Source: Nemertoderma westbladi
Lineage: Eukaryota > Animalia > Xenacoelomorpha
Direction: 5' to 3'
DNA: 64,000 nt
Assembly (NCBI GenBank): GCA_032718475.1
Contig: JAUCBJ010008313.1
Location: 193,771 to 257,770, forward strand
In this document: one piece after another, positions 2,001 to 32,108 of the stretch
How positions within the stretch are numbered: position 1 is the first letter of the stretch
How the letters are laid out: every line of letters starts with the position of its first letter
Translations under genes and position numbers: made by a program
The notes under the pieces: model-generated
Databases searched by the model: none
Seen by the model: only the letters and a program-made list of their open reading frames with translations
Told to the model about the DNA's origin: nothing

Positions 2001-2463
2001 GGTATATAGGTATATAGGTATATAGGATATATAGGTATACCATAGGAGTAGTAGTAGGATACGTAACGTAGTACCATAAGAGTTAGAAGTTATGGGCACT
2101 GAGGGCGCCATGTAAGTAAGTAGGAAAGTAGAAACGATAATAGCACAGACAGGGGGGGAACACAAAAAAAAATAAAATAAAGTTAGGGGACTAATTGACT
2201 ATGATGATGATGAGACACTAGACAGATCCCATTTCTCAAGTGCCTCATCAAACACTGACGAGAATGTGGGAGTCTGACAGGAGGGGACGGACAGCCAAAC
2301 AAACATCGGCTGAGTATAGGACAATGGAGGGAAGCATGGAGTGGAGGGGTTGACATGCGTAGGAGTGAGAGGAGTGCAATTCAAGTGTGGGGAGCGAGCA
2401 GTAAGAGAAAGAGTAAGGGACAACGAGGTCTGTTACGGTATATGGCGCTGTACCTACATTAGT

Positions 2464-2576
2464 CCGTTATACAGTATAATATATTAGCCGTTATACAGTA
2501 TAATATATTAGCCGTTATACAGTATAATATATTAGCCGTTATACAGTATAATATATTAGCTGTTGTACAGTATAAT
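2464..2576 (+). repeat. 24-bp tandem repeat (ccgttatacagtataatatattag, ~4.7 copies) in LTR U3
   Basis: Four exact units plus one variant; each holds the palindrome TTATAC-A-GTATAA; the same array is present in LTR2 and LTR3. Confidence 0.95.
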
Positions 2577-2931
2577 TATTTAGATAAGACATAATAACGC
2601 GCAATGACATTTAGATAAGGAAAATAAAACGCCCATATATTTGAATTCATCCATTTTGTATAGTATGTAGCCCTACCTACGTAATTTTGTAATAGGATAT
2701 AAGTAAATAGTTCCAGGGTAGCAAGTTTCCTGTTGGACGCTGGATATAAGCTTGCTGTTATTAGCCTCAATATCGCTAGCTATGTATTGGTCTTAATTTT
2801 CTTTATAATTGCGCTAAATTAATCTTTGTGCATCATATTATTAGTACCGCTAAATTAAGCATCGCCAAAATTACCATATATGGTAATAATTTGTGATTTC
2901 GGGAGCGAGAGGTTCACAATCCAGCTTCCTT

Positions 2932-3028
2932 ATTGGCCTAACTGCTTCCAGGTTGGACTAATGGTAGCGCGGATTGGGGAGCCAATGAGAGAGCGATTGC
3001 ATCATCCTCCATGAATCACCTATAAATA
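2932..3028 (+). promoter_or_regulatory. LTR promoter: CCAAT boxes and TATA box
   Basis: ATTGG at 2932-2936 and 2973-2977, CCAAT at 2982-2986, TATAAATA at 3021-3028; conserved in all three LTRs. AATAAA at 3786 and 3920 are candidate poly(A) signals. Confidence 0.6.
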
Positions 3029-5643
3029 GGTGGTATTTCCGGTATGTGCTTTGTAATTCTTTGTAATTTGTAACCCTAGTCGTAATTTAGACTAATTATT
3101 CTGTATTTTGCGTATTTCTGCCTTTTCCAATTATTTCTTGTAATAATTTTGCTAATTTGTAATCTCTGCTGATTTCTTGGTGTGTTTCTCAATCAATCCC
3201 AATGATTACTGTTAATTACAACTGGAACTATGATTTCTACCCTTTAGTTAATGGTTCTATGTGATTCCTTTCGATGCAATAATCCCACGGGATTTTCTTA
3301 GACTGTCAGACTTTGTGATTTGCATGCGCCGTTACGGTAGCTACCCATTAGATGGAGGGCTGAGGTACCGGTAGGCGCGGCGGGCGCATCGGGGGTTAGC
3401 GACGAAGGGAGTGCGGAGAATTCAAAGGCAAGCAACGCTGGCGGGGAGGTCACCGTTGCGGTCGGTCAGTTAGTATTGTAGAGTGAAGACCGCTCGCTGG
3501 TACAGTAATTAAGGGCTGATGATCCAGATTTTGTCTCTATTTTGTAGTATTAGGGGGGCAGGAATTGGGTTAGTTAGGAAGCCTAGATGTACCCGGGAGA
3601 GGCCTGCGTGCTTTATATTGCGAGCTAAACTGTAGACTACGTCACAAACTACGTGCGAACTGTAGATTGCGAGTTGTGAACTGTGAATTGCTGACTGCTG
3701 ATTGTGAATTGTGCATTAAGAACTATAATTGGTAAGTATAAACTATTGATTGTTACGCTGATTGGTGTGTTACTAAAGTGTGCCTAATAAATCACGAATG
3801 CTTAGATAGGTGCTCTTTTCCCTTTGATTGATTTCTATTTCTTAATTTACTATAAATAATTACTGATTAGGTCGAAAATAATACGGTATTGAGACTGTTA
3901 CTAGTGCAACCCGTTACGTAATAAATTAGAATTACGCATTCTGGAACACTTAGTAATTAGTACGCTGTTGCATATTTGTGACTGTAATTAATTAGTAAAA
4001 TTAAGAATTTGTACGCAGCATAGCGGAGAGTAGTTAAGGTAATAATTTGGAGTACCGTAAACTATTCACTCTGGGTGGTTATTTGAAATCAGCGGGCAAT
4101 AAGTTAGATCGCAGTATCCAGTACGCAGCACGCATTAGTAAATTGCTGGCCTAAAGCCAGCCGGAGGCAAGTTTAGTCCCATAGTAGGTATCATTCCCTG
4201 ATATAAAAACAGTACCAATTTTTTGATTATTTAAATATTCTCACATTCAATTCCATTAGGGAACCCCAGTATTTGCGATTAGAAAAGAAGTAATTATTAG
4301 CACGTTTTAACAGTAAAATTAGGCCATAAGAATACACTCTGAGTGTAAAGCCTCTCACACTCGTATTAAGTAAGCTTAGGGAGCCGATTCGGGTTTATTG
4401 TTTTGGTTATTCCCGCGTGGCTCATATCTTCGAACAGTTAGCTCTCTATCGAGCAATCGGTAGAGAAAGGAACAAGCGATTCGCAGGAGCCGTAGAAAAT
4501 TAGTAAAATATATTAGCGGACGGCAGGTTAGCGCCATCCAACGGTAAGTAGTGGTTTTGTATTTAGCAGCCCTACAGTTGTAATAGCACACTCCTGATTA
4601 CCCCTGTTTAACAGTAGAGCAGTCTTTATGTCTTTATTGGTTAGGCAGGGACCCGCTAGTTTAACAGTAAAGCACGTTATTTTGTTTTGCTGTACTGCGT
4701 ACAGTAAGACAAAGTGTATTTTTAGGCTGTTAGGTTAGATTACTGTATTCACTAGTCGCAATACAGTAGTACAGTAGTGCAATAGGCTGATTGCTGTTAC
4801 TGCATACGGTAGAAAAGACATTTGTTTTGCTGTACCACATACAGTATTCATTAGGCTGTTAGGTTGGTGTGCTATTTTACTCACTGTACTGCGTACAGTG
4901 GATGTACGGTAGTGCGTTTACTAACTTACGGTACTGCTTTTATTATTTTGTAATAAAATCTAGAGTTTTGTACCGGTATGTTAGATAACCGCTTAGTTGT
5001 TTTATACCATCTGGAGATACATGGCAAGACGGAGCTTCTGAGTTTGGGGTTTGTGTGGGTCTGCGGGTTCGGTTTGCAATCAGCGAAGAGCCTGAAACTT
5101 TGGACACGGACGTGGAATCTCACAGCAAACAAGGTTAGTTGTTCTGTTGGCACCATTGTGTTTGTGGAAGCAGTAAAAAATTACCGGTTGTTTAACTGCG
5201 AAGCTGAACTCAATTTATTAGTTAGGTTAGTTAGGTTTAGCTGACCATGGTTTTTTGAATCGCTCAAGTTAGAGAGAGAGAGAGAGAGTCGCAACCCGAA
5301 GGTGTAGCCACGCGCAAGTGGATACATATAATATTTGAAATTAAAATTGCGTTGATTAGAGCTATTATGTAAAATTAGAAATATTTGGGTGGCAAGTTCA
5401 TTTTTGAATATTTTGAATTAGATTCAGAAATTATTTTGTGTCATACCGGTATTTAAATGCTATATAATAGCTATGGAATAAGATTTTTTCATTATATTCA
5501 CAATGTTGTATTGCGAATTTATTTGACATTTTGTGACCAACTAATTATTTGACAAATAATTTAATCGTATTTTCGATTAAATTATATATATATCTCGAAT
5601 TTTTTGCGAGATTTTGGCCGGAAGGCAAAATATTATTTAGACT

Positions 5644-8600
5644 ATGAGTATCTCAGAGAAAGAGGCACTAGAGGACAGCTATGAGACGGCGGCTGGACCG
5701 CCGACTGACGATAGTGTTAATATTACTGTTGACGACAATGCTGACTATGACGACGCAGCGAGCGACGCTGACATAAGTGAACAGGAGGATGAGACAGTAA
5801 CCAGTGAGGAAGAGCAAGGTGAGCGAATAGTATTAGGATCCCCTACCACTACTGTAAGGAAGGATTGTACAACAGCCCGACCAGAGGTGAGTGATAGGGA
5901 GAGTAGTTTAGCAGAAGCGAGAGCCCAGAGCCCGGTTTCCAGACCTGTGGGTATGGTAAGTGCCGTGGTCCCAACGGCTATAAGGAGTACCCGTAGTTCC
6001 CGAAATAATCCTTCAAGTCCACCAAGTGTGAGTCAGGTAAGCGAGAGAGAACTAGACATCGCGATAAAGAAGAAACTTCGCGCGCATGCCGGACATATAA
6101 CCCGGACGACGGACAAGGTAAGGAAGATGCTAGCCGACTCAGCGAACATCGGAAGGGAAGGGTTAGTAGAGATTAGAAGGGGATACAACTCAGCATTATT
6201 CAAGAAGACGGAGGAGCTTGCAGTCCTAGCGAAGAGAGCAGTGGAGTCTCAGTCGAGCGACATGGCGACGAGGGTTTACGATAGGGTTTTAGCAGCCTTG
6301 TTGGAGCACCGCACGTTATCGGAGCGATTCCGACGAGTTAGGACGGAGAACTGGCTGCTATGGGAATCACAAGCGCAGGTGACTCAGGTGAGTGACGCAG
6401 AGTTGAGAAACTTAGTGGAGCGGGAAGAGACGCAGGATAAGGAAGAGCGCAGGTATCAGAGGGAAGTTACCAGCTGGCTGATGCAGAGTGGAGTGGTGGT
6501 ACCGGGTCAGGTGCTGCCGACGATGGACAATATCCAACAGAGGACATTAACTCCACCCGACAATGCATCTAGAGACAGTGGCGATTCCCAGGTTAGTCAC
6601 GCACGAGGGAAGGTTATGTGCTAGATCCCTTGTTTCTCACAACTCGGCGGAGGAGAGAAGACGCCGACTGGACGAACAACAGGCGGAAGTTTTGCGTGCA
6701 TCGGAAGCACGGAAGGAAGCCGAACGGGAACGAGAGCGCACACGGAAGTTAGATGCACAGTTGCGAGAGTTGGAAGACAAAGGTAAGTGTGAGCAAGCCG
6801 AACGCGAACAGGAAGAACGCGAACTCCAACTCGAACGCGAACGCGAAGAACGCGAACTCCAACTCGAACGTGAACGCGAAGAACGCGAACTCCAACTCGA
6901 ATGCGAACGCGAAGCCAAGGAACGCGAACAAAGAAGACGCGAACTCCAACTCAACGCGAGCGTAGGAGCGCAAACTAGAGCGCGAGAGGGAGCGACGCGC
7001 ATTGTATGAAGAGAAGGCGCGTGTGGAAGAGGAGAGCGCAGCGAGACGAGCGAGGGAAGAAGAAGAACATAAATTGGCGCAGTTGGAAAGTGCGAGATTA
7101 AATTTAGAGAGCGAAAAATGGACCAGGAAGGCGAATGAAATCGCCGAGAAGGGGATGCGAATGATCGAAGAATGTGGGGCGAGTGTAGGTACCGAGTTGC
7201 GAGAACTGTTCGCACTGCAGAAGGCTGAACAGGAAGCGAAAACTCCGACTATATGCGAGTCGATGACGACCAGAATTCCTATACCCAGTCCAGCTATTAC
7301 GAGTACTCGGATCACTAAACCGTTCTCTACATATCGCACGCCAATTGGTATTAGTGCTTCACCCATCGCGCAGGATCCACGTCATCAGGACACCGCACCA
7401 CTACACACCGAACGAGACAATGAAGTGTTTAGAGGAGAAACTCAGACGGGCCGAGTATTGGGCGAACCGAACCCGCGGGTTTGGAATACATGGACGGAGC
7501 GCTGACCAGTTCGACGGAGAACTTCCGGGTTAAACCGGAAGAGTGATCATATGAGAGACAGCGGATTACTCAGATAGAGCCGACTATACAACAGAACCCT
7601 AGCCAGGAATTTATTACGAGGGATGAGTTAAGTGCCAGTTTAGCGCAAGCTATATCGCCGCACATCCAACCTATAACGGACATGCTTAGTAACCTACAGT
7701 TAAAGGAAGCAGCCCAGGTAAGAAGTAATTCAAATCCTAGCAGGCCTGGGTTAGATAAAGTCCAACCTAGTCAACGAGTACGCATATCGGAGGCAACTAT
7801 ACCACATAGACCTCAGGTAAGAACACCTGTCCCTACAATTTATAATCCCAACTTCGAGAACTCGGCGGAAAAGTTTATACAAGAAGCCTGGGTCAGGGCT
7901 TCGGCGCGCAAACCAACGCGAGTGCTAAGGACTGACACAGACTCAAGCGATGAAGAGGAAGACATGAGACGTTAGAAGAAGACATGAGTACGACAGCACC
8001 TTTACTCCCAATGAGAAGTTCAACTATTTGCTTCAAATGAGCCATTGCTGACAACTTCGTCGACAATGAAAGAGCATTCGAGTTAGCAATGAAGACGCTT
8101 AGCGACATCTACGGGAATAAAACCAAGATGGCACAGTCGATAGTGGAAGACTTGGGTAAGGGCGGAAGGATTACAACTCCGCTAGAGCTGTTGAACTTAG
8201 CGAACGCTATTTCGAACGCATTAGACATCTTGAGGATGGTGAATCTACCTCATCATGGTGATCACGCCGAAGTTTTGAAGAGCATAATAAGACGTTTAAA
8301 CATGCGTTACCGACAGAAATGGTGCAAATTAGAGAATAAATTAGAGGGTCAAGGTAAAGTGTTGACACTTCAACATATCCATGACTTGATAGCCACAGAC
8401 GCAGTAGCAGAGATGAAATCAAACTTCTCAGAGGAGAATATGAGAGAGTCTAAACCTGTTACCGGTAAGACTATGGTAAGTTTTGACGATGACATGACCA
8501 CTGTGACATTTAACTCAGTAGACAGATATAATTCGAGTACCCCTGCCTTTAGATCAGACTCACGAGTATGGTCAGGTGAGCGGTTAGATAGACCTAAGTT

Positions 8601-9015
8601 AAAGCAACAGGAGTTGCCGGTTGGATTTGTAGGTTGCCAATTCTGCGTACTAAAGGAGGTAAGATCTGACGACCATAAGTTAGACAGTTGCAGACGGTTC
8701 AAAGAATTAACTTCGGAACAGAGAAGAGTTCAAGTGCGGACATTGGACACCTGTTGGGCATGTCTTGCGCCAGGTCATGTACGGCGGCAGTGCCCGAACA
8801 GTAAGGACGGATGCATGGAATGCGGCAGACTACTTCACAAGTTGCTACATGTGGATTTCCATACCCCAACGGAACGTTACTTACAGAGAAATCCTCAAAG
8901 GAATGGGAGCAGAGATCCCATATCGATAAGGAGAAATACGTACACTGGCATCCAGGACGATGGTTATCAACCAGGTTCGTCGGCGAGGATGGTGAGTCGA
9001 GCGCGAGAGAGGTGA
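5644..9015 (+). pseudogene. gag: Bel/Pao gag (copy 1), frameshifted: acidic N-terminus, coiled-coil E/R repeats, DUF1759-like capsid region, three Cys/His knuckles
   Basis: ORF pieces 5644-6624, 6563-7009, 7002-7505, 7682-7975 and 8089-9015; CQFC..H...C, CWAC...H...C and CMEC...HKLLH knuckles are typical of Bel/Pao. Confidence 0.9.
6814..6955 (+). repeat. 33-bp coding repeat (ERELQLERERE)n in the gag coiled coil
   Basis: gaacgcgaactccaactcgaacgcgaacgcgaa, about 4 copies. Confidence 0.85.
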
Positions 9016-9069
9016 CCTGCCAAGGTTTCACTGCGGATAGTTCATCGACCAGCGCGCGGACGTATTTAT

Positions 9070-9620
9070 CATCGGCCACGTCGGAGATATTTAACGTCAT
9101 TCCGGTGAAACTTACTGGCGATAAGGGATCGAAGAGAATATATGTGATGTTGGACACTGCGTCCACATTATCTTATATCGACGAGGAAGTGGCGAGAGCT
9201 GTTTCTAGTTTCCAGGACACAGAGGAGATCCAAATAGAGTTAAAGTCCATGCACGGGGTAGGGGACCTCAAGGGACACAGAATTTCGGTAGAACTAGACT
9301 CCCTACCTCCAAGAGACCAGCACATCGACAAGAACGGAGAGCGCTGCCATTGGACGGATTTAAGTGTCTAGCTATGAAGGGGTTCGGCAGGCAGTTAGGT
9401 AAGGTGCCACCGATGAGTCCCATAGCACAGGAGTAATTTGACAAGCTCAAAGTACCGAGACACCAGGTAGGTTATAGGAATGTTTCTATGTTGGTTGGTG
9501 CAGAACAGCTGATCGCACACCAAATATGGGAAATGAGACCAGCTGAGCCGCACGTAAATGGACCACATGCCCATAGGACTATATTAGGTTGGTATACACG
9601 AGTACCCATGTCTTATGAGT
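9070..9620 (+). pseudogene. Bel/Pao aspartic protease (copy 1), frameshifted
   Basis: IPVKL..IYVMLDTASTLSYI (catalytic D at 9153) ... MLVGAE ... GPHAHRTILGW. Confidence 0.85.
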
Positions 9621-10059
9621 TTACAGGTGGCGACAAGCCAAAGGATAGATACAACGGATTACAGCCTATAACTCAACCACCGTTAGTAGAACCACCAGAC
9701 ATAGACGAGTTTAGGAGAACCTGTATTGACCACTATAGTGACATTAGCGAGTCGGACTAGGAGTTGATTCCCGATAATGTTAGGTTGTCGGAAGCACTCT
9801 ACAATGACTGGACAGATAGTGAACCCGAGGACTACTGTTATCAGACCTGTGGGTCTGGTTCAGCGGCCCACGCTACCTACTTGAGTAACGTTTTGACTTA
9901 TACCAATATAGTGGAGGGTCAGGTGGCTAAATATCGAGACCTCGACATTTTCCAATACAGTGAGGAGGAGTTGCAGAAGGAATTGATACGCCAGGACCTC
10001 GAGACAGGAGCCAGAACCGTCGAATGGCTGGATAGGGACGCAATGGAACCCGGTGGGTA

Positions 10060-11240
10060 TGACCTAACCATGTCCACTGATGAGAAACGGTCGCTAGAGA
10101 TGATGGAAGACACCATACGTCTGCTACCGACAGGACATTTTGAAGTTGGAATGTTGTGGCGTCGACATCCACCTAAGTTGGAGTACAACTACAGCTTAGC
10201 CTTGAAAAGATTGAACGGAGTAAGGGCAGGGTTGTTAAAGAATCCAGATGTTAGGGAGAAGTATTGCGCCCAGATCAACAACTATTTCGCAAAGGGATTT
10301 GCTGGGAAGGTAGAGGACCCGGAATTAGTGATGGACCAGACTTATTACCTCCCACACCACTATGTGACTCCCACTATGTGACACCCTGACAAGCCAGACA
10401 AAGTCCGAGTAGTCAACGACTGCGCAGCAGTCTATAGAGGCATTACCCTGAATTCAGAGTTGATGGACGGTCCCAACCTGAATAATTATTTGATAGGAAT
10501 ACTGTTGCGTTTTAGACAGCGGCGATTCGCGTTTACTTGTGACATCGAGGCAATGTTCCACCAGGTAAGAGCCTGTAAGGCAGACCAGGATAGCCTCAGA
10601 TTTCTCTGGTACGAGAATGAAGACCTATCCGGCCCAGTGGTTACATACCAAATGTATGTTAGGATATTTGGTGCCAACGATAGTCCAAACGGCACGCTGT
10701 TTGTTCTAAAGAAAACGGCAACAGCCCAGATTGGTAAGTATCCAGTAGAAGTTATCGAGTCCATCTTGAGAAACTTCTATATGGACGACGGATTGGTGTC
10801 CAAGGACACAGCTGAACAAGCCATAGAAGTGGCTCACGGCCTACAGGAGTGCTTGGCTACAGGGGGATTTCCTCTGACCAAGTTCACTACTAACTCGGAG
10901 GCCCTATTAGAATCGTTCCCGGTGAAAGGTCGCGGGAGCGGAGACATAGAATTGGGGGTAGAACCCATCCCCATGGCGCGAGTACTGGGACTCGCTTGGA
11001 ACCCGAACATGGACAAGTTACAGGTAAGAGTTAGATTTGAGCCCAGTAGTCCAGACAAAATTTTGACTAAGAGAATCTGTTAGTCGACATTAAGTAGACT
11101 ATTTGACCCGATAAACTTTATCAGTCCGGTAATATTACAGGCACGAGCGTGCATGAGGAAAATTTGGTTGTCTGACTTAGAGTGGGACGAACCAATATCT
11201 TCTATACATGCAAAGCAGTGGAGAGAGTGGGAAGCCGAGT
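10060..11240 (+). pseudogene. pol: Bel/Pao reverse transcriptase (copy 1), with stops and frameshift
   Basis: GHFEVGMLW, YYLPHH, KVRVV.DCAA, GPNL, DIEAMFHQV, FGANDSP, FYMDD (10778-10789), VLGLAWN, FDPI. Confidence 0.92.
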
Positions 11241-11299
11241 TGCATCTATTGAAAAATATAGATGTACCCCGCTCCTACTTTCCGAATCAGCTGGTATTT

Positions 11300-11800
11300 C
11301 CAGCTGATCTAGAACTGCACCTGTTTAGTGACGCAAGTGACACCGGCTTTGGTATGGTAGCCTACCTTCGCCAAGAGGTAAGTCAGGACAAGTTTGAGAC
11401 GGCCTTTGTGACTTCTAGATCAAAGACAATGCCGGTCAAATACATGACTGTCCCTCGTGCAGAGTTACAGGAGGCAGTAGTTTCAGTCGAGGTAAGTAAG
11501 CAGATAATAGAGGAGTTAGACACGACATTGACCTTATTCTATTGGACGGACGCATCCTTAGTGTTAGTATACATTGCAGCCGACAATATTGCACTAAAGA
11601 CATTTGTGGCCAAAAGACGCGCTCAGATCGTCGACTTTTCGACGAAGGAACAATGGAGACATTGTCCGGGAGTGTTAAACCCGGACGACATAACTTCGAG
11701 AGGTGCTATGCCGGCGGAATTCTGTCAGGAAGAGTTTTGGTTGCATGGGCCTGATTTTCCAACGAGGACACAGGAACATTGGCCAGAGCGACTGAAGATA
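11300..11800 (+). pseudogene. pol: Bel/Pao RNase H (Peptidase_A17-type) domain
   Basis: ELHLFSDAS..GFG.VAYLR, TVPRAEL, YWTDAS.VL.YI, WRHCPG.LNP.D..SRG, WLHGP. Confidence 0.9.
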
Positions 11801-11875
11801 GTGACCAATCCGATGCCAGAGGATGCAGAAGTCAAAGTGGAGAAAGTCTCTAAGTCAAAGTCTAAAGCCAAACTC

Positions 11876-11960
11876 AAGTCATTGGAGCGGCCTGAAGAGT
11901 CATTGGAGCGGCCTGAAGAGTCATTGGAGCAGCCTGAAGAGTTATTAGAGCGGCCCGGAG
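11876..11960 (+). repeat. 21-bp in-frame repeat (SLERPEE x4) in the RNase H-integrase linker
   Basis: gtcattggagcggcctgaaga repeated about 4 times. Confidence 0.85.
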
Positions 11961-12539
11961 ACCTGTCAGACCTACAGACTTACGTGACGACTAGGTCTGG
12001 AAGGGTAAGTTGTGACATAAAACCACCATTACAGACTACACCAGGGTCACAATTGGTAAGTGACGGACAGAAAATGACCGACACAATGGAGCCTTTGGTT
12101 TCCAAACCTGCGGGTTTGGATTCGAAACTTCTATTAGTTAGCGGACAACCGTTGCTGGCATTAGAGCCATGTAGTATTTATGACAAATATCTAAATTTGT
12201 CCGCCTCTTGGCTGACAATTTGTAAAAGAACTGCGTGGTTAAGCCGATGCGTTTTGTACCTTTGTTTAAACCATTCGAAACAATTAGAAGAACAAATGAG
12301 CACTAATAGTGAGCAAATTCAGAAATTGAAACAACCTCTGACAGAGGATGAGATTGATCAAGCGGAATTAAAGCATTTGAAGCATTATCAAATGTGTGCC
12401 TTCCCAAAAGAATTCTATCTATTATCGGCTCAACAACCAGTTCTCTATAAACCCCTTAGAAAATGGAGTCCATTAATCCATAAGGCTTTAATTTGTCATA
12501 GATCGAGAATCCAGACTGTCGACATAAACTCACAGTTTA

Positions 12540-13750
12540 GGTTCCCAGTGATAATCCCTAGTCACCCAATAGAATTGCAAAGAGCGATTCTATGGGATAT
12601 ACACAAGAGGTTGCATCACGCGGGAAAGTTACACTGTTTGTCGGCAGCGAGACAGCGATTCATTCTATTGCAGCCAAGCAGAGCAGTAGGCACTATGTAC
12701 GACGCCTGTCTGGTTTGCAAGAGAGTGAACGCCAGAGTATTGGAACAGGAGATGGCTTAACTCCCGGAAGCGAGAGTGCAGGCATATGACCCACCCTTTA
12801 CAAATACAGGGGTGGACTGCTTTGGTCCGACTGAGGCAAAGAGTGGACGGCTGACCCACAAGCGATGGGGCCTGCTACTGATATGCATGGCTAGTAGAGC
12901 CATACATATCGAGCATGTGGCAGACATGTCGACCAAATCTCTGCTCCTGGCCTTAAAGAGATTTATGGCCAGGAGAGGACTAGTAAAGGCGTTTTACTCT
13001 GACAAGGGTACTAACTTTGTCGGAGGGAATAGCGAGTTAAACGCGGCTCACAGGGTGGCGCAGAATAGAGAAATTTCTGCAGCACTTTTGCCGCAAAGAG
13101 TAGAGTGGCGATTTAACACTCCAGAAAGTCCTTGGAGAGGAGGAAGTTGGGAGCGTTTGGTTCGTTCCATAAAGCAGGCTATTGCTAAGACGTTGCCTGT
13201 AAACAAACAACTTACCGACGACGAGCTGGTCACAGCTTTCATCGAAATCGAGCATACACTAAACTCGAGGCTGATAGCTATGTTACCAGACGGTGTTGCT
13301 TTAACGCCGAATCATTTGCTAATGCAGAGTCCAGCATTTCTTGTGCCGGCATCAGAACCCATTAGTGCCGACCTATACAGTCGTAAGAGCTGGAAAATAA
13401 CACAATTTGTCGCGTACACATTCTGGGAATACATATCCATATCCACCAGATCGAAATGGTACAAAAAGATTTGGAGCCTCCAAAGAGGAGACTATGTATT
13501 GATAACTGAACCCGTTGTCAAGAGAAAATATTGGGAAACAGGTGTCATCTTGCACATACACCCAGACGTGCAAAATATAGTGTGCACAGTCACTGTGAAA
13601 ATTAGGTACAAGTGTCCGCACCCAAAGAAGTGTAAAACTAATGGTTTACACACCTTGGACTGACCGTTCCAAGATATCGTGTTATTAGAAGAGACACGCA
13701 TCGAGACAGGAGATTATAATTTGTCTCCTGCCTCAAACCAAAATTAGTGT
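12540..13750 (+). pseudogene. pol: Bel/Pao integrase (HHCC, DDE core, DUF5641-like C-terminus), with in-frame stop at 12758
   Basis: IHKRLHHAG...CLVC; PFTNTGVDCFGP; C..SRAIHIE; SDKGTNFVG; PWRGGSWERLVRSIK; LTPNHLL; GDYVLI. Confidence 0.92.
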
Positions 13751-14479
13751 TGGACGCATCTCACTTCGTATGCATTCCTCGTATGCAAATACTAGGAAAT
13801 GCATAGGAGCGGGTTTGCGGTGATTTGCGTGAGAATTTGTCTGGTGGGTATCAAAATAAAATTTTATTTTCAAAATTTTTGGAAAATTAAAAAATTTAAA
13901 AAATTAGAAGTGAACCCAAGACAATTCCAAATGCTGTGTATAGACGCGTTTTAGAATTCGTCTATAGAGATACAGTAATTTGAAAAGTCGTGAAGCCTGG
14001 AAAATAGCATTTAGAAACCATGGTGAAGGCTATATTACATAGGAGTGTAAATTGAGTTTAGCAATTTCCACAGATTGGTGCCAACAGTACAACAACCAAG
14101 GTGCTAAAGGTTAGTAGCACCAGAGGCGTACACGGACCCCACTCAGTAGTTTGCAGTGAAGTGAGATGTTCGATTATCAAACCTGCGGGTTTGGTATAGT
14201 CGAGCACTGAGACTATTGTCCTTTCTAACTACTGTAGTTTAGTACAAGTAATGGGAGTAGTTTGGGCATCAAAAAGTGAGTTGGTCACGGCCAGTTTATC
14301 TCCAAAGTTTTGCGCTATGCATGGGAATTGGTTAGAGGATAGTTAGGAATGAGACGGGATCTAGAGAGTCGAATCTGAACTGCTGGAAGGCGGGGGGGTT
14401 CGGGAGGTCTGTCCTTCGGCGGCATCTAACTGATTTACCCACAGTGTAATTAGTTACGTAACGGACCCTATTGGGATAT

Positions 14480-17400
14480 ATGTATGTATATACGCGGCTT
14501 ATAATGGAGAAGGAAATTAGAGCTCAACTGCGGAGAGGATTTACTGCCAGAGAGGAGGCGGAACTACCATTTGCCCGACCCGGGTGCAAAGACTCGAACG
14601 TTTACTACCATGGGAGGTCGGTAATGGAATTGAATAGGAAGTATAAACCCGCGTATGATAAAGAATTGAGGAGGGAAAGAATGAGAGCGTTGGGAGACCG
14701 TATGGAAGTTTTGCGGAAGGAGTATCGCACTCGGTATCCCTACGATTTTGCGTTAGACGTATGCGACATTAGTGCAGACCCGGACGAGGAGATCGCGCGG
14801 CTGTACCATATGAACATGTTTTTACGACACGACGAACCTCTACCTGCAGTCCGAGATCAGTTCGACGGAATGCATCTGTACCGGAGGACTCGAGGCAAGG
14901 ATCAAGAGACGCCAAAGGTCTTCAGTGTATACAAGTAGTTCTACAAATGTGGTGAATGCATGAATAAACAAGACGTGGCGATTCCCGATCGACTGGACAA
15001 GCAACATCCTGAACCGATATTAACGCGATGTCAAGCTCACCAGTTCCTTAGATACAACGAGGGAGGTTACCCAATGAGCAACCCGATGATCAGTATCGAC
15101 TTCAGCGGAAAGCGACCTCCGAGACCCATTACGCCGACCATTACGACATTAGATCCATATACGGAGATTAAACCCTGTTCGACACCCAGTTTGATAGAGA
15201 CGTCAGCGGCCATTTCGCTATACCGAGCCTATAAGGACCTAGAGGCGCGGCGCGAAGCGGCACGGGACTCGGGAACCAAACCCGCGGGTTTGGAGCTCTC
15301 GAGTCCCTGGACTACGTTTACTTCGCCTCACCGAGCGAGAAATCTCACGCCTGAGCATCAGGACGACATAGACGCGTTGCGGCAGGAGGATCGAGCGGCG
15401 AAGGCGAAACAATTATTCGAAGAGCGGGTAGCGGAGTATAATAAGACCGCGGATGACATCAGGAGGAGACGAGGAGAGTGACCGGATTTGTTCCACAGGC
15501 CGTATCTCAACCCCGAACGGTGTATTATTCCGACGGCAACGAACCTGCAATATTGGTAGATCACCCAGAGTCGCGAGAAGCGATTAGATTCTTGCCGATG
15601 GTGAGGATGTCGGATCATTGGAACGTCGAATGTCTACGGGAAGTTTTATGCGCGAAGTTCTTGCGTGATGTCCCGATGCAGATCACAGACTACGACACGC
15701 TTGACAAGATTGGAGCTCCGGGAAAGGAGAGCAAGTTGTTTGGATGGTTGGATAAGTACATAAAGGTATGGGTCGCGGTGGCTACATTCCCAGACGATGA
15801 GGAGGTAGACCAGACGTGGCTGAGGAGAAAGGGTTCTTACACCCGATATGATGACCACAAGGCTATCGAGCGCATGTGGGTGGACCCCATCCCATCCGAC
15901 GAGATTCAGCGTCAGTGGAGGAAAACGGAGGAATCACTACAGGATTGGAGAGTGATGTTCTACGACAATGAAGGAGGTTCTCATCAAGAATGCTTAACTA
16001 GCAAGTGCATTCAAATTCGCACGGCAGATGGTGTGACTCATGTGTTTATGCGCGTAAGGGCGGACCGAGAGAGACTGGAGCCCATAATAACGACACAATA
16101 TCGTAAAGGGAAGGATCCCAGAGAACAGATTTTGGAGGTATGCAGGCGAGGAGGTATGCACGGAGCGGGGCGTATCGACGCCAGGATGCTACCCAAGAAG
16201 GTTAGAGAGGCGATTCTCAACCAAGATTACGTCAAGGTGGGATCGGGAGTCCAGAGCGATTTGGAGAGTGACTTCAACGCCATGACTGATTTGGAAGATA
16301 GATTGCCGAGACCGTTTGTCGACACCAAGCTATTGTTGCTATGGGCACAGGATATTGGAATTTATAGGGAGTATCCCAACTCTGCCAAGACTGGTTTGGG
16401 TTTCATAGCGCATTTGTTGTATAATTGGGACTTCAAGTTGAAGATGCAGAAGAGATACGAGGAGGCGTATGGTGAATATAACACGCCACCGGGAGCGGAG
16501 TTCAAATCCCACTTCAAGCGGCAAGCGTTAGTGTATTGGAGCATCTGCGCGCCACCCTGTGTGTCACTGCAATATTATTTGGTGCTTGAGTCGAACACGG
16601 TAACTTGTTTATTAGCGGATATAGTTGCGCGAGTTTTGAAGCATCATCCATTGGTATTCGGAGGAGATCAATATGTTCACTTGAAAGGGGGAATCCAATC
16701 TGATGTGATGAAGCGTTTCTTAACCCCGTTCTTCAACCAATCATTAGAGAATACGTCGATGGTTAGGAGAGGATTAGCGATATTTGAAGGAATATATCGA
16801 CAGAACATCGGAGATTTGGGAGACCGACCGTCGATGGAGTATCCGACGCCAGAGGCCTTGGAGAAGTGGTTCGGGAATCAAACCCGCGGGTTTGGTACTC
16901 CCTTCCACTCGGAGGCTGATAGACCTGTTAGAGAGGGTTGGCCGGAGATGTTAGTAGAGGTATTCGGAGTGGATCTTCCGGTGGAGAAGACATATGAACG
17001 CGGGAGGAAATATTGGAGATAGAGGACAAGGGCGAGGATGTTTACTTTGTTCCGGATCGACAACCTCTGACCGGAGAGGACGACAACATATTAGACATTG
17101 GGAAAGAAGGAACTGCGAAACCGATTGGAGACCTCATATATGAGGGGGCCTGGTTTCCACAAGCGCGTAGGTGCAAGTTGTGCGGCAGCACAAGGCACAA
17201 TCAAAAATCAAGTGACGCAGTAGTAGAGGCGGCGCATAAGGTCTGCCGTTGGTGTAATGAGACCGACCATTCGTTTCATACGTGCACCGTCTTCATTTCT
17301 CAATGTGGATATTGTGGGGTAAAGGGACATCGTAGCGCGAGATGCCAACTGCGAGACGATTCCTTCCAAAACCATAGCGCCAACCTACTTCGGGAGATGC

Positions 17401-18205
17401 TAGATAAGTGGGAGGGTGTGGCCGATTACCACATCCAAGCGCAGATGCGTTGGTTACCGTTTAAAGCAGGATACAGATTTTGGGCAGTAGACCCATCACA
17501 CGTTGCGTATGAGCCGTATCTACAGTCGTTACCACAATATCAGGAGCTAATATTGACCGCTCAAGATCTTCCGCAGAACACTGGAGTCATCGGGAATACT
17601 TCAGACAGTTAAACATGGATAACAAATATACTTGGAACTTTGTTGCTATTTGCGACCATATAACGAAAGGTCTATTTTTGGAAACTAGAAAGGTGGTGCG
17701 CGCGCGAGGAGATTGGAGGATGGCGGCTATACAATACCATAACGAGTTCCTATTGACTCACGTACCGGTGGGGTCATTGACCGTTGAGAGGATCAAGGAA
17801 CAGCGAACCGCAGCGCCCACAGCGACAACCGTTGGAGCTCAAGGCTTGCGGAGAGAACCAGGAGGAGAGGTCCAAGACAAGCATCAAGTCAAGGACGACC
17901 ACTATCATTCAATTATAGAGGCACAATGATTGCAGTGCATGGCTCAAGGCACGTCCGAGAAAGCGCGTGTGCAATTGCAGAAGGAAGAGTTGGCGGAAGC
18001 GACCACAGGAGCACGACAATTGGGACGAGGCCGAGGGAGAAGCACCAGCCGGGAATCAGTCGGGGCTCAGGGAACATCGTCGCCGGTTCCGGGGAGTGAC
18101 GCCTCACAGACGCCGTCAACAGAGTCTACAGGGGGTAGACTGGTGTATCTGGGAAGGGGGCGGAAGAGAGGAGCGAGCCCGAAGAACCCAGGAGCAGGTC
18201 GGTAA
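14480..18205 (+). pseudogene. Accessory ORF (copy 1) in the env position: unknown N-terminal region, DEDDy WRN/EXD/Mut-7-like 3'-5' exonuclease, three CCHC knuckles, basic RG-rich tail
   Basis: Pieces 14471-14938, 14960-15481, 15478-17022, 17013-17612, 17615-17929 and 17930-18205 join using copy 2. FYDNEG (ExoI), CIQI, ILNQDYVKVGSGVQSD (ExoII), FVDT, GLGFIAHLL, W...LQYYLVLES (ExoIII-like); CKLCGSTRHNQKS[S/C], CRWCNETDHSFHTC, CGYCGVKGHRSARC. Confidence 0.75.
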
Positions 18206-18730
18206 TGCAAGCGTATCATGGAGCGACAGACTCTAGATATATACATCATCGTCGCTCTGATGTATATTGTAGCATTTTTGTAAATATCCGACTGGACTCA
18301 TATATACTAGTTGTAATAATTTGAATTTATATTATGAGAGAGGCGAAGGAGGTGATTGGGGAGACAAACCTGCGGGTTTGGCTTACTCGTTTCACCTACC
18401 CTAGCAAGTTTTATAGAGAAAGCAGTATTTTTATAAATTTAATTTGTATGTAGTAAGTAGTAATCATTATGTAGAACGAACGAGAAAGCAATATTTTTGT
18501 AAATTTAATTTGTATGTAATAATCGTTGACATTGAAAGAGATAATATTTTGTAAATTTAATTTGTATGCAATCCATTATGCAATATCTATGGCAATATTT
18601 GTAAATAGTAGAATTATTATAGTATCAAGTTATTTAGATTATTTGAAAGCAAATTTATTTTGTTTTGTATACATCGCCCTATACTCTTCTACAATTGGAG
18701 GGAAACATTGCTTGATTTCACTTGGAGCGG

Positions 18731-20968
18731 TGTTACGGTATATGGCGCTGTACCTACATTAGTCCGTTATACAGTATAATATATTAGCCGTTATACAGTA
18801 TAATATATTAGCCGTTATACAGTATAATATATTAGCCGTTATACAGTATAATATATTAGCCGTTGTACAGTATAATTATTTAGATAAGACATAATAACGC
18901 GCAATGACATTTAGATAAGGAAAATAAAACGCCCATATATTTGAATTCATCCATTTTGTATAGTATGTAGCCCTACCTACGTAATTTTGTAATAGGATAT
19001 AAGTAAATAGTTCCAGGGTAGCAAGTTTCCTGTTGGACCCTTGATATAAGCTTGCTGTTATTAGCCTCAATAGGGCTAGCTATGTATTGGTCTTAATTTT
19101 CTTTATAATTGCGCTAAATTAATCTTTGTGCATCATATTATTACTACCGCTAAATTAAGCATCGCCAAAATTACCATATATGGTAATAATTTGTGATTTC
19201 GGGAGCGAGAGGTTCACAATCCGGCTTCCTTATTGGCCTAAATGCTTCCAGGTTGGTCTAATGGTAGCGCGGATTGGGGAGCCAATGAGAGAGCGATTGC
19301 ATCATCCTCCGTGAATCACCTATAAATAGGCGGTATTTCCGGTATGTGCTTTGTAATTCTTTGTAATTTGTAACCCTAGTCGTAATTTAGACTAATTATT
19401 CTGTATTTTGCGTATTTCTGCCTTTTCCAATTATTTCTTGTAATAATTTTGCTAATTTGTAATCTCTGCTGATTTCTTGGTGTGTTTCTCAATCAATCCC
19501 AATGATTACTGTTAATTACAACTGGAACTATGATTTCTACCCTTTAGTTGATGGTTCTATGTGATTCCTTTCGATGCAATAATCCCACGGGATTTTCTTA
19601 GACTGTCAGACTTTGTGATTTGCATGCGCCGTTACGGTAGCTACCCATTAGATGGAGGGCTGAGGTACCGGTAGGCGCGGCGGGCGCATCGGGGGGTTAG
19701 CGACGAAGGGAGTGCGGAGAATTCAAAGGCAGGCAACGCTGGCGGGGAGGTCACCGTTTCGGTCGGTCAGTTAGTATTGTAGAGTGAAGACCGCTCGCTG
19801 GTACAGTAATTAAGGGCTGATGATCCAGATTTTGTCTCTATTATGTAGTATTAGGGGGGCAGGAATTGGGTTAGTTAGGAAGCCTAGATGTACCCGGGAG
19901 AGGCCTGCGTGCTTTATATTGCGAGCTAAACTGTAGACTACGTCGCAAACTACTTGCGAAATGTAGATTGCGAGTTGTGAACTGTGAATTGCTGACTGCT
20001 GATTGTGAATTGTGCATTAAGAACTATAATTGGTAAGTATAAACTATTGATTGTTACGCTGATTGGTGTGTTACTAAAGTGTGCCTAATAAATCACGAAT
20101 GCTTAGATAGGTGCTCTTTTCCCTTTGATTGATTTCTATTTCTTAGTTTACTATAAATAATTACTGATTAGGTCGAAAATAATACGGTATTTGGACTGTT
20201 ACTAGTGCAACCTGTTACGTAATAAATTAGAATTACGCATTCTGGAACACTTAGTAATTAGTACGCTGTTGCATATTTGTGACTGTAATTAATTAGTAAA
20301 ATTAAGAATTTGTATGCAGCATAGTGGAGAGTAGTTAAGGTAATAATTTGGAGTACAGTAAACTATTCACTCTGGGCGGTTATTTGAAATCAGCGGGCAA
20401 TAAGTTAGATCGCAGTATCTAGTACGCAGCACGCATTAGTAAATTGCTGGCCTAAAGCCAGCCGGAGGCAAGTTTAGTCCCATAGTAGGTATCATTCCCT
20501 GATATAAAAACTGTACCAATTTTTTGATTATTTAAATATTCTCACATTCACATTCTGTTAGGGAACCCCAGTATTTGCGATTAGAAAAGACGTAATTATT
20601 AGCGCGTTTTAACAGTAAAATTAGGCCATAAGAATACACTCTGAGTGTAAAGCCTCTCACACTCGTCTTAAGTAAGCTTAGGGAGCCGATTCGGGTTTAT
20701 TGTTTTGGTTATTCCCGCGTGGCTCATATGTTCGAACAGTTAGCTCTCTATCGAGCAATCGGTAGAGAAAGGAACAAGCGATTAGCAGGAGCCGTAGAAA
20801 ATTAGTAAAATATATTAGCGGACGGCAGGTTAGCGCCATCCAACAGTAAGTAGCGGTTTTGTATTTAGCAGCCCTACAGTAGTAATAGCACGCTCCTGAT
20901 TACCCCTGTTTAACAGTAGAGCAGTCTTTGTGTCTTTATTGGTTAGGCAGGGACCCGCTAGTTTAACA
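18731..20968 (+). repeat. LTR 2 (shared middle LTR, 2238 bp)
   Basis: TGTTACGG...GTTTAACA, preceded by the element's 3' UTR (..cttggagcgg) and followed by the same 5' leader as LTR1; no TSD on either side. Confidence 0.95.
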
Positions 20969-25632: not shown

Positions 25633-28600
25633 ATGTATGTATATACGCGGCTTATAATGGAGAAGGAAATTAGAGCTCAACCGCGGAGAGGATTTACTGC
25701 CAGAGAGGAGGCGGAACTACCATTTGCCCGACCCGGGTGTAAAGACTCGAACGTTTACTACCATGGGAGGTCGGTAATGGAATTTAATGGGAAGTATAAA
25801 CCCGCGTATGATAAAGAATTGAGGAGGGAAAGAATGAGAGCGTTGGGAGACCGTATGGAAGTTTTGCAGAAGGAGTATCGCACTCGGTATCCCTACGATT
25901 TTGCGTTAGACATATGCGACATTAGTGCAGACCCGGACAAGGAGATCGCGCGGCTGTACCATAGGAACATGTATTTACGACACGACGAACCTCTACCTGC
26001 AGTCCGAGATCAGTTCGACGGAATGCATCTGTACCGGAGGACTCGAGGCGAGGATCAAGAGACGCGAAAGGTCTTCAGTGTATACAAGTTGTTCTACAAA
26101 TGTGGTGAATGCATGAATAAACAAGACGTGGCAATTCCCGATCGACTGGACGAGCAACATCCTGAACCGATATTAACGCGATGTCAAGCTTACAAGTTCC
26201 TTAGATACAACGAGGGAGGTTACCCAATGAGCAACCCGATGATCAGTATCGACTTCAGCGGAAAGTGACCTCCAAGACCCATTACGCCGACCGTTACGAC
26301 ATTAGATCCGTATACAGAGATTAAACCCTGTTCGACACCCAGTTTGATAGAGACGGCAGCGGCCATTTCGCTATACCGAGCCTATAAGGACCTAGAGGCG
26401 CGGCGCGAAGCGGCACGGGACTCGGGTACCAAACCCGCGGGTTTGGAGCTTTCGAGTCCCTGGACTACATTTACTTCGCCTTACCGAGCGAGAAATCTCA
26501 CGCCTGAGCATCAGGACGACATAGACGCGTTGCGGCAGGAGGAGCGAGTGGCGAAGGCGAAACAATTATTCGAAGAGCGGGTAGCGGAGTATAATAAGAC
26601 TGCTTTCTGGAGACTGGAGGAGACGAGGAGAGTGACCGGATTTGTTCCACAGGCCGTATCTCAACCCCGACCGGTGTATTATTCCGACGGCAACGAACCT
26701 GCGATATTGGTAGATCACCCGGAGTCGCGAGAAGCGATTAGATTCTTGCCGATGGTGAGGATGTCGGATCATTGGAACGTCGACTGTCTACGGGAAGTTT
26801 TATGCGCGAAGTTCTTGCGTGACGTCCCGATGCAGATCACAGACTACGACACGCTTGACAAGATTGGAGCTCCGGGAAAGGAGAGCAAGTTGTTTGGATG
26901 GTTGGATAAGTACATAAAGGTATGGGTAGCGGTGGCTACATTCCCAGACGATGAGGAGGTAGACCAGACGTGGCTGAGGAGAAAGGGTTCTTACACCCGA
27001 TATGATGACCACAAGGCTATCGAGCGCATGTGGGTGGACCCCATCCGACGAGATTCAGTGTCAGTGGAGGAAAACGGAGGAATCACTACAGGATTGGAGA
27101 GTGATGTTCTACGACAATGAAGGAGGTTCTCATCAAGAATGCTTAACTAGCAAGTGCATTCAAATTCGGACGGAGGATGGTGTGACTCATGTATTTATGC
27201 GCATAAGGGCGGACCGAGAGAGACCGGAGCCCATAATAACGACACAATATCGTAAAGGGAAGGATCCCAGAGAACAGATTTTGGAGGTATGCAGGCGAGG
27301 AGGTATGCATGGAGCGGGGCGTATCGACACCAGGATGCTACCCAAGAAGGTTAGAGAGGTGATTCTCAACCAAGATTACGTCAAGGTGGGATCGGGAGTC
27401 CAGAGCGATTTGGAGAGTGACTTCAACGCCATGACTGATTTGGAAGATAGATTGCCGAGACCGTTTGTCGACACCAAGCTATTGTTGCTATGGGCACAGG
27501 ATATTGGAATTTATAGGGAGTATCCCAACTCTGCCAAGACTGGTATGGGCTTCATAGCGCATTTGTTGTATAATTGGGACTTCAAGTTGAAGACGCAAAA
27601 GAAATACGAGGAGGCATATGGTGAATATAACACGCCACCGGGAGCAGAGTTCAAATCCCACTTCAAGCGGCAAGCGTTAGTGTATTGGAACATCTGTGCG
27701 CCACCCCGTGCGCCACTGCAATATTATTTGGTGCTTGAGTCGAACACGGTAACTTGTTTATTAGCGGATATCATTGCGCGAGTTTTGAAGCATCATCCAT
27801 TGGTATTCGGAGGAGATCAATACATTCGCTCGAAAGGGGGAATCCAATCTGATGTGATGAAGCGTTTCTTAACCCCGTTCTTCAACCAATCGTTAGAGAA
27901 TACGTCGATGGTTAGGAGAGGATTAGCGATATTTGAAGGAATATATCGACAGAACATCAGAGATTTGGGAGACCAACCGTCGATGGAGTATCCGACCCCA
28001 GAGGCCTTGGAGAAGTGGTTCGGGAATCAAACCCGCGGGTTTGGTACTCCCTTCCACTCGGAGGCTGATAGACCTGTTAGAGAGGGTTGGCCGGAGACGT
28101 TAGTAGAGGTATTCGGAGTGGATCTTCCGGTGGAGAAGACATATGACCGCGGGAGGAAATATTGGAGATAGAGGACAAGGGCGAGGATGTTTACTTTGTT
28201 CCGGATCGACAACCTCTGACCGGAGAGGACGACATCGTATTAGAAATTGGGAAAGAAGGAAGTGCGAAACCGATTGGAGACCTCATATATGAGAGGGCCT
28301 GGTTTCCACAAGCGCATAGGTGCAAGTTGTGCGGCAGCACAAGGCACAATCAAAAATCATGTGACGCAGTAGTAGAGGCGGCGCATAAGGTCTGCCGTTG
28401 GTGTAATGAGACCGACCATTTGTTTCATACGTGCACCATCTTCATTTCTCAATGCTGATATTGTGGGGTAAAGGGACATCGTAGCGCGAGATGCCAACTG
28501 CGAGACGATTCCTTCCAAAACCATAGTGCCAACCTACTTCGGGAGATGCTAGATAAGTGGGAGGGTGTGGCCGATTACCACATCCAAGCGCAGATGCGTT

Positions 28601-29353
28601 GGTTACCGTTTAAAGCAGGATACAGATTTTGGGCAGTAGACCCATCAAACGTTGCGTATGAGCCGTATCTACAGTCGTTACCACAATATCAGGAGCTAAT
28701 ATTGACCGCTCAAGATCTTCCGCAGAACACTGGAGTCATCGGGAATACTTCAGACAGTTAAACATGGATAACAAATATACTTGGAACTTTGTTGCTATTT
28801 GCGACCGTATAACGAAAGGTCTATTTTTGGAAACTAGAAAGGTGGTGCGCGCGCGAGGAGATTGGAGGATGGCGGCTATACAATACCGCAACGAGTTCCT
28901 ATTGACTCACGTACCGGTGGGGTCATTGACTGCTGAGAGGATCAAGGAACAGCGAACTGCAGCGCCCACAGCGACAACGTTGGAGCTCAAGGCTTGCGGA
29001 GAGAACCAGGAGGAGAAGTCCAAGACAAGCGTCAAGTCAAGGACGACCACTATCATTCAATTATAGAGGCACAATGATTACAGCGCAAGGCGCAAGGCGC
29101 GTCCGAGAAAGCGCGTGTGCAATTGCAGAAGGAAGAGTTGGCGGAAGCGACCACAGGAGCACGACAATTGGGACGAGGCCGAGGGAGAAGCACCAGCCGG
29201 GAATCAGTCGGGGCTCAGGGAACATCGTCGCCGGTTCCGGGGAGTGACGCCTCACGGACGCCGTCAACAGAGTCTACAGGGGGTAGACTGGTATATCTGG
29301 GAAGGGGGCGGAAGAGAGGAGCGAGCCCGAAGAACCCAGGAGCGGGTCGGTAA
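25633..29353 (+). pseudogene. Accessory exonuclease/CCHC ORF (copy 2)
   Basis: Near-identical to 14480-18205 with mostly different lesions (TGA 26266, 4-bp deletion ~27041, TGA 28456). Confidence 0.75.
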
Positions 29354-29871: not shown

Positions 29872-32108
29872 TGTTACGGTATATGGCGCTGTACCTACAT
29901 TAGTCCGTTATACAGTATAATATATTAGCCGTTATACAGTATAATATATTAGCCGTTATACAGTATAATATATTAGCCGTTATACAGTATAATATATTAG
30001 CCGTTGTACAGTATAATTATTTAGATAAGACATAATAACGCGCAATGATATTTAGATAAGGAAAATAAAACGCCCATATATTTGAATTCATCCATTTTGT
30101 ATAGTATGTAGCCCGACCTACGTAATTTTGTAATAGGATATAAGTAAATAGTTCCAGTGTAGCAAGTTTCCTGTTGGACCCTGGATATAAGCTTGCTGTT
30201 ATTAGCCTCAATAGGCCTAGCTATGTATTGGTCTTAATTTTCTTTATAATTGCGCTAAATTAATCTTTGTGCATCATATTATTAGTACCGCTAAATTAAG
30301 CATCGCCAAAATTACCATATATGGTAATAATTTGTGATTTCGGGAGCGAGAGGTTCACAATCCGGCTTCCTTATTGGCCTAAATGCTTCCAGGTTGGTCT
30401 AATGGTAGCGCGGATTGGGGAGCCAATGAGAGAGCGATTGCATCATCCTCCATGAATCACCTATAAATAGGCGGTATTTCCGGTATGTGCTTTGTAATTC
30501 TTTGTAATTTGTAACCCTAGTCGTAATTTAGACTAATTATTCTGTATTTTGCGTATTTCTGCCTTTTCCAATTATTTCTTGTAATAATTCGCTAATTTGT
30601 AATCTCTGCTGATTTCTTGGTGTGTTTCTCAATCAATCCCAATGATTACTGTTAATAACAACTGGAACTATTATTTCTACCCTTTAGTTAACGGTTCTAT
30701 GTGATTCCTTTCGATGCAATAATCCCACAGAATTTTCTTAGACTGTCAGACTTTGTGATTTGCATGCGCTGTTACGGTAGCTACCCATTAGATGGAGGGC
30801 TGAGGTACTGGTATGCGCGGCAGGCGCATCGGGGGGTTAGCGACGAAGGGAGTGCGGAGGATTCAAAGGCAAGCAACGCTGGCGGGGAGGTCACCGTTGC
30901 AGTCGGTCAGTTAGCATTGTAGAGTGAAGACTGCTCGCTGGTACAGTAATTAAGGGCTGATGATCCAGATTTTGTCTCTATTTTGTAGTATTAGGGGGGC
31001 AGGAATTGGGTTAGTTAGGAAGCCTAGATGTACCCGGGAGAGGCCTGCGTTCCTTATATTGCGAGCTAAACTGTAGACTATGTCGCAAACTATGTGCGAA
31101 CTGTAGATTGCGAGTTGTGAACTGTGAATTGCTGACTGCTGATTGTGAATTGTGCATTAAGAACTATAATTGGTAAGTATAAACTATTGATTGTTACGCT
31201 GATTGGTGTGTTACTAAAGTGTGCCTAATAAATCACGAATGCTTGGATAGGTGCTCTTTTCCCTTTGATTGATTTCTATTTCTTAGTTTACTATAAATAA
31301 TTACTGATTAGGTCGAAAATAATACGGTATTTAGACTGTTACTAGTGCAACCCGTTACGTAATAAATTAGAATTACGCATTCTGGAACACTTAGTAATTA
31401 GTACGCTGTTGCATATTTGTGACTGTAATTAATTAATAAAATTAAGAATTTGTATGCAGCATAGCGGAGAGTAGTTAAGGTAATAATTTGGAGTACCGTA
31501 AACTATTCACGCTGGGCGGTTATTTGAAATCAGCGGGCAATAAGTTAGATCGCAGTATCCAGTACGCAGCACGCATTAGTAAATTGCTGGCCTAAAGCCA
31601 GCCGGAGGCAAGTTTAGTCCCATAGTAGGTATCATTCCCTGATATAAAAACTGTACCAATTTTTTGATTATTTAAATATTCTCACATTCACATTCCGTTA
31701 GGGAACCCCAGTATTTGCGATTAGAAAAGACGTAATTATTAGCGCATTTTAACAGTAAAATTAGGCCATAAGAATACACTCTGAGTGTAAAGCCTCTCAC
31801 ACTCGTCTTAAGTAAGCTTAGGGAGCCGATTCGGGTTTATTGTTTTGGTTATTCCCGCATGGCTCATATGTTCGAACAGTTAGCTCTCTATCGAGCGATC
31901 GGTAGAGAAAGGAACAAGCGATTAGTAGGAGCCGTAGAAAATTAGTAAAATATATTAGCGGACGGCAGGTTAGCGCCATCCAACGGTAAGTAGCAGTTTT
32001 GTATTTAGCAGCCCTACAGTAGTAATAGCACGCTCCTGATTACCCCTGTTTAACAGTAGAGCAGTCTTTGTGTCTTTATTGGTTAGGCAGGGACCCGCTA
32101 GTTTAACA
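29872..32108 (+). repeat. LTR 3 (3' LTR, 2237 bp)
   Basis: TGTTACGG...GTTTAACA followed directly by the TSD AGGTC and non-element sequence. Confidence 0.95.

Follow-up and report, generated by a model that had tools for sequence, protein, structure and literature searches.

In this study, we identified a Bel/Pao retrotransposon whose third gene encodes what is very probably, on sequence grounds, a divergent DEDDy-type 3'-5' exonuclease with CCHC knuckles. The element lies on the + strand of a 64,000-nt stretch of the Nemertoderma westbladi genome (contig JAUCBJ010008313.1; hereafter the window), to whose positions all coordinates refer. In line with the initial annotation of this DNA, the additional sense-strand gene stands between integrase and the 3' long terminal repeat (LTR) in both units of the insertion, starting in the first at ATG 14480. 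We are close to certain that this accessory gene is real and selected, and consider it highly probable that its central domain has a DEDDy fold; catalytic activity of the predicted exonuclease is the somewhat favoured expectation. The parts of the gene are as follows.

14426..14444, + strand: splice-acceptor-like site with branch point, pyrimidine-rich tract and YAG, 35 nt upstream of the ATG, predicted from sequence
14480..15951, + strand: accessory N-terminal part, ~490 codons of no recognised family, with two breaks private to copy 1
15952..16620, + strand: predicted DEDDy-type 3'-5' exonuclease domain (D15964, E15970, D16258, Y16576, E16588), under purifying selection
17172..17345, + strand: three CCHC knuckles, the first lacking its last Cys in copy 1, their frame lying downstream of a break common to both window copies
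17346..17612, + strand: Trp-rich stretch, its start alignable with the homologue P0001; the frame stops in both copies
17606..18205, + strand: RG-repeat tail frame with one stop common to both copies; its membership in the accessory protein is unproven
25633..29353, + strand: accessory gene copy 2, 2.6% diverged, in the unit without most of pol

Several lines of evidence converge on the exonuclease. The five predicted catalytic residues are all identical in copy 2, and the acids lie where they had been placed before (D15964/E15970, D16258 and E16588). In the ESM Atlas, 25/30 matches of the window domain belong to PF01612 (score 0.91, 155 shared features). With a profile built from 28 RNase D domains, hhalign aligned the region over ExoII at 68% probability and a score of 37.4, whereas none of 40 column shuffles scored above 20.4; other profiles gave 4.6% (bacterial WRN-like), 0.9% (PolA) and 0.3% (short RNase D) probability. 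RNase D is the best match among the profiles that we built, all of them from references without eukaryotic sequences, and on these bacterial profiles the particular kinship with WRN, EXD1 and Mut-7 that had been suggested was not borne out. An ordered motif chain derived from 66 bacterial PF01612 domains picks ExoI, strand 2, ExoII and DT, as well as ExoIII one residue off; its score was reached in 0/100 shuffles with any of three profiles, and the ExoI D-x-E and the ExoII Asp were top-ranked sites in the chains of all three. Like RNase D, Rrp6, WRN-exo, EXD1 and Egalitarian (PF01612), the window protein has the ExoI D-x-E, the ExoII D and the ExoIII Y-x3-acid in order, but it differs from them in its ExoIII Glu, an insertion between ExoI and ExoII, and a CCHC triple instead of an HRDC domain. 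A profile built on the C-terminal parts of 18 RNase D proteins scored no higher than 1 bit on six segments, and Rrp6-type cargo was rejected for want of an HRDC.

The search for homologues returned a single match among 1.84 billion protein representatives, the 648-aa protein P0001 (E 1.7e-7), known from one 9,449-bp contig. It is 27% identical over 192 columns from ExoII to ExoIII and retains the acids and the Tyr, again with Glu at ExoIII. Both proteins thus have Y-x3-E where the canonical motif is Y-x3-D, and since P0001 shares the Glu, it appears to be a family trait, not decay. P0001 combines the exonuclease and three CCHC knuckles in one intact frame; its knuckles and Trp-rich stretch align with the window knuckle frame, and the knuckles match HIV-1 nucleocapsid (E 1e-4). 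Its ExoIII was top-ranked for 2/3 profiles, its PF01612 Pfam score was 11.9 bits (cut-off 23.6), and its nearest Atlas neighbour is a PF01612-plus-CCHC cluster (0.86), which we treat as a lead only. Atlas, motif chain and P0001 therefore agree with the original reading of a DEDDy-type exonuclease with CCHC knuckles. Further relatives were not found: word-index searches returned none for the window stretch and only P0001 itself for the P0001 exonuclease part, no relative turned up among viral, metagenome and prokaryote contigs, and tblastn against plasmids gave one chance match.

Selection on the domain was assessed at variant sites over 15940-16620 in public contigs of this many-copy family (40 listed of 47). 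Among the 40 listed, 31 are synonymous and 29 fall at third positions, compared with 8/40 synonymous in the other two frames; taking all seven unlisted sites as replacements still leaves p <= 3e-6. None of the 40 falls within the five catalytic codons. Of the sites at which the two window copies together depart from other copies, 27/29 are synonymous, and of those private to copy 1, 4/11. This synonymous excess relative to other family copies indicates that purifying selection acted on the exonuclease domain at a time when the family was mobile, and neutral evolution, which would have spoken against the gene, does not describe its core. Between copy 1 and copy 2 the ratio over the exonuclease stretch is 0.54 (p 0.04), a weak signal of the kind expected if both copies decayed after insertion. 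Beyond the core, 19 of 40 listed gene-wide rows could be classed, after dropping nine outside the gene, six already counted, one stop codon, two in one knuckle codon and three in the poorly covered tail; 15/19 are private to copy 1 and mostly replacements, and these rows are therefore uninformative on selection outside the exonuclease core.

The reading frame is less simple than first described. The exonuclease lies within one unbroken stretch of 521 codons (15457-17022; maximum 292 codons in 300 shuffles of the region), and the lesions in the first two-thirds do differ between copies, at about 14937 and 15455 in copy 1 and about 26266 and 27040 in copy 2. A single ~1,200-aa frame running to 18205 could nevertheless not be recovered from the two copies, which we compared and did not merge into a consensus, because breaks at about 17000-17020, 17610 and 17927 are common to both. 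At the first of these, contigs from all four sequencing runs differ in length from the window, so that this break is not family-wide. Both copies close the knuckle frame with a stop at 17610-17612, and P0001 does not extend far beyond its knuckles, so that a protein of about 1,040 aa is possible. The RG-repeat frame is indeed present, but its proposed link to the protein is not supported by a knuckle frame that stops at 17612, and it may be separate. Three knuckle sites of the form CX2CX4HX4C were likewise found as described, but the set is complete in neither copy: copy 1 has two complete knuckles and one without its last Cys, and copy 2 has that Cys and a stop in knuckle 3. A further zinc site of the form CxxC-x23-CxxH was rejected, its His being Tyr in copy 2. 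No transmembrane segment was found in six open stretches (top 19-residue hydropathy 1.34), and the absence of a membrane anchor bears out the earlier judgement that the gene is not env. The splice-acceptor-like site is kept in copy 2 (25579-25597), but the 14-kb internal region contains four patterns of this type, which makes the one before the ATG suggestive only.

A number of results weigh against this interpretation. The 155 shared Atlas features fall below the 170 typical of same-family matches, and the window ExoIII is near register in one of three profiles, shifted in another and missed by the third, its Glu-for-Asp exchange counting on the same side. In Klenow fragment, an Asp-to-Glu exchange at ExoIII is reported to leave much of the activity, a point to which we give no weight here. 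The window domain had no match in Pfam, NCBIfam, PHROG or PDB sequence searches, and AlphaFold2 models were of low confidence (pLDDT 35 from the single sequence, 31 from a 3-row alignment). Between the two window copies, selection on the accessory gene as a whole is not clear-cut (ratio 0.75, p 0.11), the knuckle stretch has a ratio of 2.0 on 12 changes, and the selection evidence covers the exonuclease core, not the N-terminal part, knuckles or tail. Regarding function, Egalitarian keeps all five catalytic residues and yet has no need for them (10.1101/2025.08.03.668247, in part; here and below, this marks sources available in part).

The internal regions also carry a recurrent predicted RNA structure, which could provide binding sites for a knuckle protein.

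5941..18381, + strand: predicted RNA hairpin, eight copies, YGYG loop closed by two C-G pairs

The hairpins start at 5941, 7469, 9843, 12104, 14179, 15278, 16880 and 18366 in unit 1 and at 22329, 25350, 26431, 28029 and 29514 in unit 2. The motif, a pattern chosen by eye, occurs at nine sites, compared with 0.29 expected matches; a looser pattern gives the eight in unit 1 and the five in unit 2, whereas the LTRs and the remainder of the window have no match. The sites are near-palindromic; their upper stem is conserved and their lower stems are unrelated to one another. They recur at intervals of 1.1-2.4 kb, within non-coding DNA as well as in each of the three frames. On folding, 5/8 have z <= -3.1 and the remaining three -0.4, -1.1 and -1.6. 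Their pairs include four G.U and no A.C, which favours + strand RNA as the folded form. No Rfam match was found over 2400-21300. A role as packaging signals for Gag is just as plausible, Gag being as good a candidate binder as the accessory protein, and this is a further point against assigning the hairpins to the latter.

The host of this gene is, judged by its sequence, a member of Bel/Pao (Belpaoviridae). Self-comparison resolves the insertion into a tandem LTR-internal-LTR-internal-LTR array of three LTRs and two internal regions, with a unit size of 18.5 kb and an LTR size of 2.24 kb.

2426..2430 (left) and 32109-32113 (right): 5-bp target-site duplication flanking the whole array
2431..4666, + strand: LTR 1, 2,236 bp, TG...CA ends, 5-bp terminal inverted repeat
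5644..8850, + strand: gag, broken, with three Cys/His knuckles at 8635-8850 and a DUF1759 match in the unit-2 copy
8805..13745, + strand: pol, broken, with protease, reverse transcriptase (RT; YMDD at 10778), RNase H and integrase (H2C2, DUF5641)
18731..20968, + strand: LTR 2, common to both units
29872..32108, + strand: LTR 3

All three LTRs have TG...CA ends, and the target duplication fixes the LTR end. The Bel/Pao identity given by the initial annotation stood: Pao-type Pfam profiles match the internal genes (Peptidase_A17, E 3.7e-36; DUF1759, 7e-10; DUF5641, 1e-8; integrase H2C2 too), and after gag the domains follow the order protease, RT, RNase H and integrase (PR-RT-RH-IN), with gag knuckles, YMDD and integrase motifs in the expected sequence. 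The gag knuckles start at 8635, 8752 and 8812; three gag knuckles, the last of His type as here, are the Bel/Pao pattern. The 30 nt after the LTR (4667-4696) contain no TGG-type primer site, which we count in favour of the trimming mechanism proposed below; for Bel/Pao, a site for tRNA-Arg or tRNA-Gly would be typical there. With Belpaoviridae (PMC8742986; PMC3118150, in part) the element shares the gag-PR-RT-RH-IN order, Pao RNase H, DUF1759, DUF5641, LTRs and overlapping gag and pol; it differs in lying outside their size range (4.2-10 kb, LTR 0.2-1.2 kb), in a third gene that is not env, and in that the canonical primer site is not seen after the LTR. Both units have decayed, and unit 2 has lost most of pol and retained the accessory gene. 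The three LTRs diverge by 1.9-2.4% and the internal copies by 2.6%, similar values which suggest that the tandem formed at about the time of insertion. In three DNA runs, 5,583, 2,793 and 4,052 contigs fall on 5.2 kb of the element, figures that reflect depth and not copy number.

Some further observations concern this region. In each copy the frames of gag and protease overlap (8805-9015; 24233-24443), which may be a programmed shift and not a lesion; overlapping gag and pol frames are allowed for Belpaoviridae by the ICTV (PMC8742986). A 24-bp unit is present in five copies near the start of each LTR (2458-2580, 18758-18880, 29899-30021). The run of a second organism, putatively an RNA run, covers 17/30 bins; it yielded pieces ~90-95% alike over 15018-17222, which could reflect a close relative or transfer. 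Elsewhere in the window, RT fragments of other elements lie at 40582-41346, 45241-47304 and 50875-51420, one with a weak endonuclease match (LINE-like), and a long repeat array with a spacing of ~455 bp occupies 55400-64000.

How might such a protein serve its element? Starting from the gene, its motifs, the selection upon it and the intact homologue, we propose that the accessory protein would load onto the element's own RNA and trim free 3' ends there. The protein would be read from a spliced subgenomic RNA, its nucleocapsid-type knuckles would bind genomic RNA, possibly at the eight dispersed hairpins, and the nuclease would trim the RNA end or a primer within that particle precursor. As a whole, we regard this mechanism as possible rather than probable. 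A nuclease directed at the host, which would protect the family by over-trimming or destroying piRNA, siRNA or the precursors of either, seems unlikely, albeit the strongest of its competitors. It would fit a family represented by thousands of contigs per DNA run, and the second Atlas match of P0001 is an EXD1-like cluster (0.77, a lead only); however, many trimmers of this kind are blocked by 2'-O-methyl ends. Suppression of host defence is known from arenavirus DEDD nucleases (PMC7968707, in part) and transposons do encode anti-silencing proteins, as with VANC (PMC5735166, PMC10398659, both in part), whereas for the comparable third open reading frame (ORF3) of rotifer elements the available part of PMC5408684 gives no clear link to copy number. 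A more elaborate version of the same idea is distinctly improbable to us: a so far undescribed two-part RNA system, made up of hairpins every 1-2.4 kb on the genomic RNA and a knuckle-exonuclease protein that would bind them and destroy silencing RNAs arriving there. Such a system would be analogous, at the level of RNA, to the VANC anti-silencing system of plants, and the exonuclease-plus-knuckle cargo would have been acquired by more than one LTR superfamily.

Catalysis might also be dispensable, the fold serving as an Egalitarian/EXD1-like adaptor that only binds RNA stem-loops and routes genomic RNA for export, transport or packaging. The ExoIII Glu in both known members and the eight dispersed hairpins are compatible with this, as are the Egl DEDDy domain, which binds stem-loops with no need of catalysis (10.1101/2025.08.03.668247, in part), and the export of unspliced RNA by Cer1 CERV (PMC10309623, in part). 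Nevertheless, two proteins with no more than 27% identity have the four acids and the Tyr in common, and the five catalytic codons are free of all 40 listed variant sites; we rate the adaptor slightly below the anti-silencing nuclease. Proofreading or trimming of cDNA ends for an oversized genome, like nidovirus ExoN, is very unlikely. The 18.5-kb unit does exceed the 4.2-10 kb of the family (PMC8742986), ExoN accompanies large RNA genomes (source available in part) and the Dada DEDDy domain has been proposed to trim DNA ends (PMC3706591, in part), but the accessory gene is separate from pol, and the PolA proofreading profile fared far worse than RNase D (0.9% vs 68% probability). Slightly less credible still is a coincidental motif match or a passenger gene: the lack of any curated profile match and the failure of both structure predictions (pLDDT 35, 31) would be explained, but not the frame-specific purifying selection, three concordant homology tests (Atlas, hhalign, motif chain) or the intact homologue P0001.

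The predicted exonuclease gene has a precedent. A DEDDy ORF3 has been described in the bdelloid rotifer LTR retrotransposons Juno and Vesta and in Athena/Terminon (Rodriguez et al. 2017, PMC5408684, in part) and retold in reviews (PMC6431247, PMC6338049, both in part); the initial annotation missed these elements. The rotifer and window genes are alike in being third genes for a DEDDy-type exonuclease in an LTR retrotransposon, with no transmembrane segment and one acid changed to Glu. They differ in that the rotifer elements carry the GPY/F integrase motif, and hence are by our reading of Ty3/gypsy type, whereas the window element is Bel/Pao; in motif (DEED in rotifers, D-E-D-E here); in near-neutral variation of the rotifer ORF3, as opposed to strong selection on the window exonuclease; and in the three knuckles and ~490-residue N-terminal part that the window gene adds. 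In the available part of PMC5408684, 'CCHC' is not mentioned and 'Pao' occurs only within an author's name. Dada (DEDDy, PMC3706591, in part) and KolobokD (DEDDh, PMC9587614, in part) are likewise transposon-borne DEDD nucleases, but both are DNA transposons, and in Dada the domain lies inside the transposase. No Bel/Pao element with exonuclease cargo was found in the open full-text literature, a search that did not extend to Repbase, Dfam, GyDB, subscription journals and the PMC3118150 supplements, which may contain one.

In conclusion, as far as these searches reach, the cargo type is known from rotifers, while its host superfamily, architecture, selection signal and dispersed hairpins are new. 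Besides the gypsy-type elements of rotifers, a second LTR superfamily is thereby added to those with exonuclease cargo, here in a different architecture, and evidence of selection is supplied that the rotifer study did not find. The dispersed hairpins are a candidate target and of interest in themselves, given the poor understanding of how Bel/Pao elements replicate (PMC8742986). The intact P0001 and the unbroken exonuclease domain make the role of retrotransposon DEDDy proteins testable.

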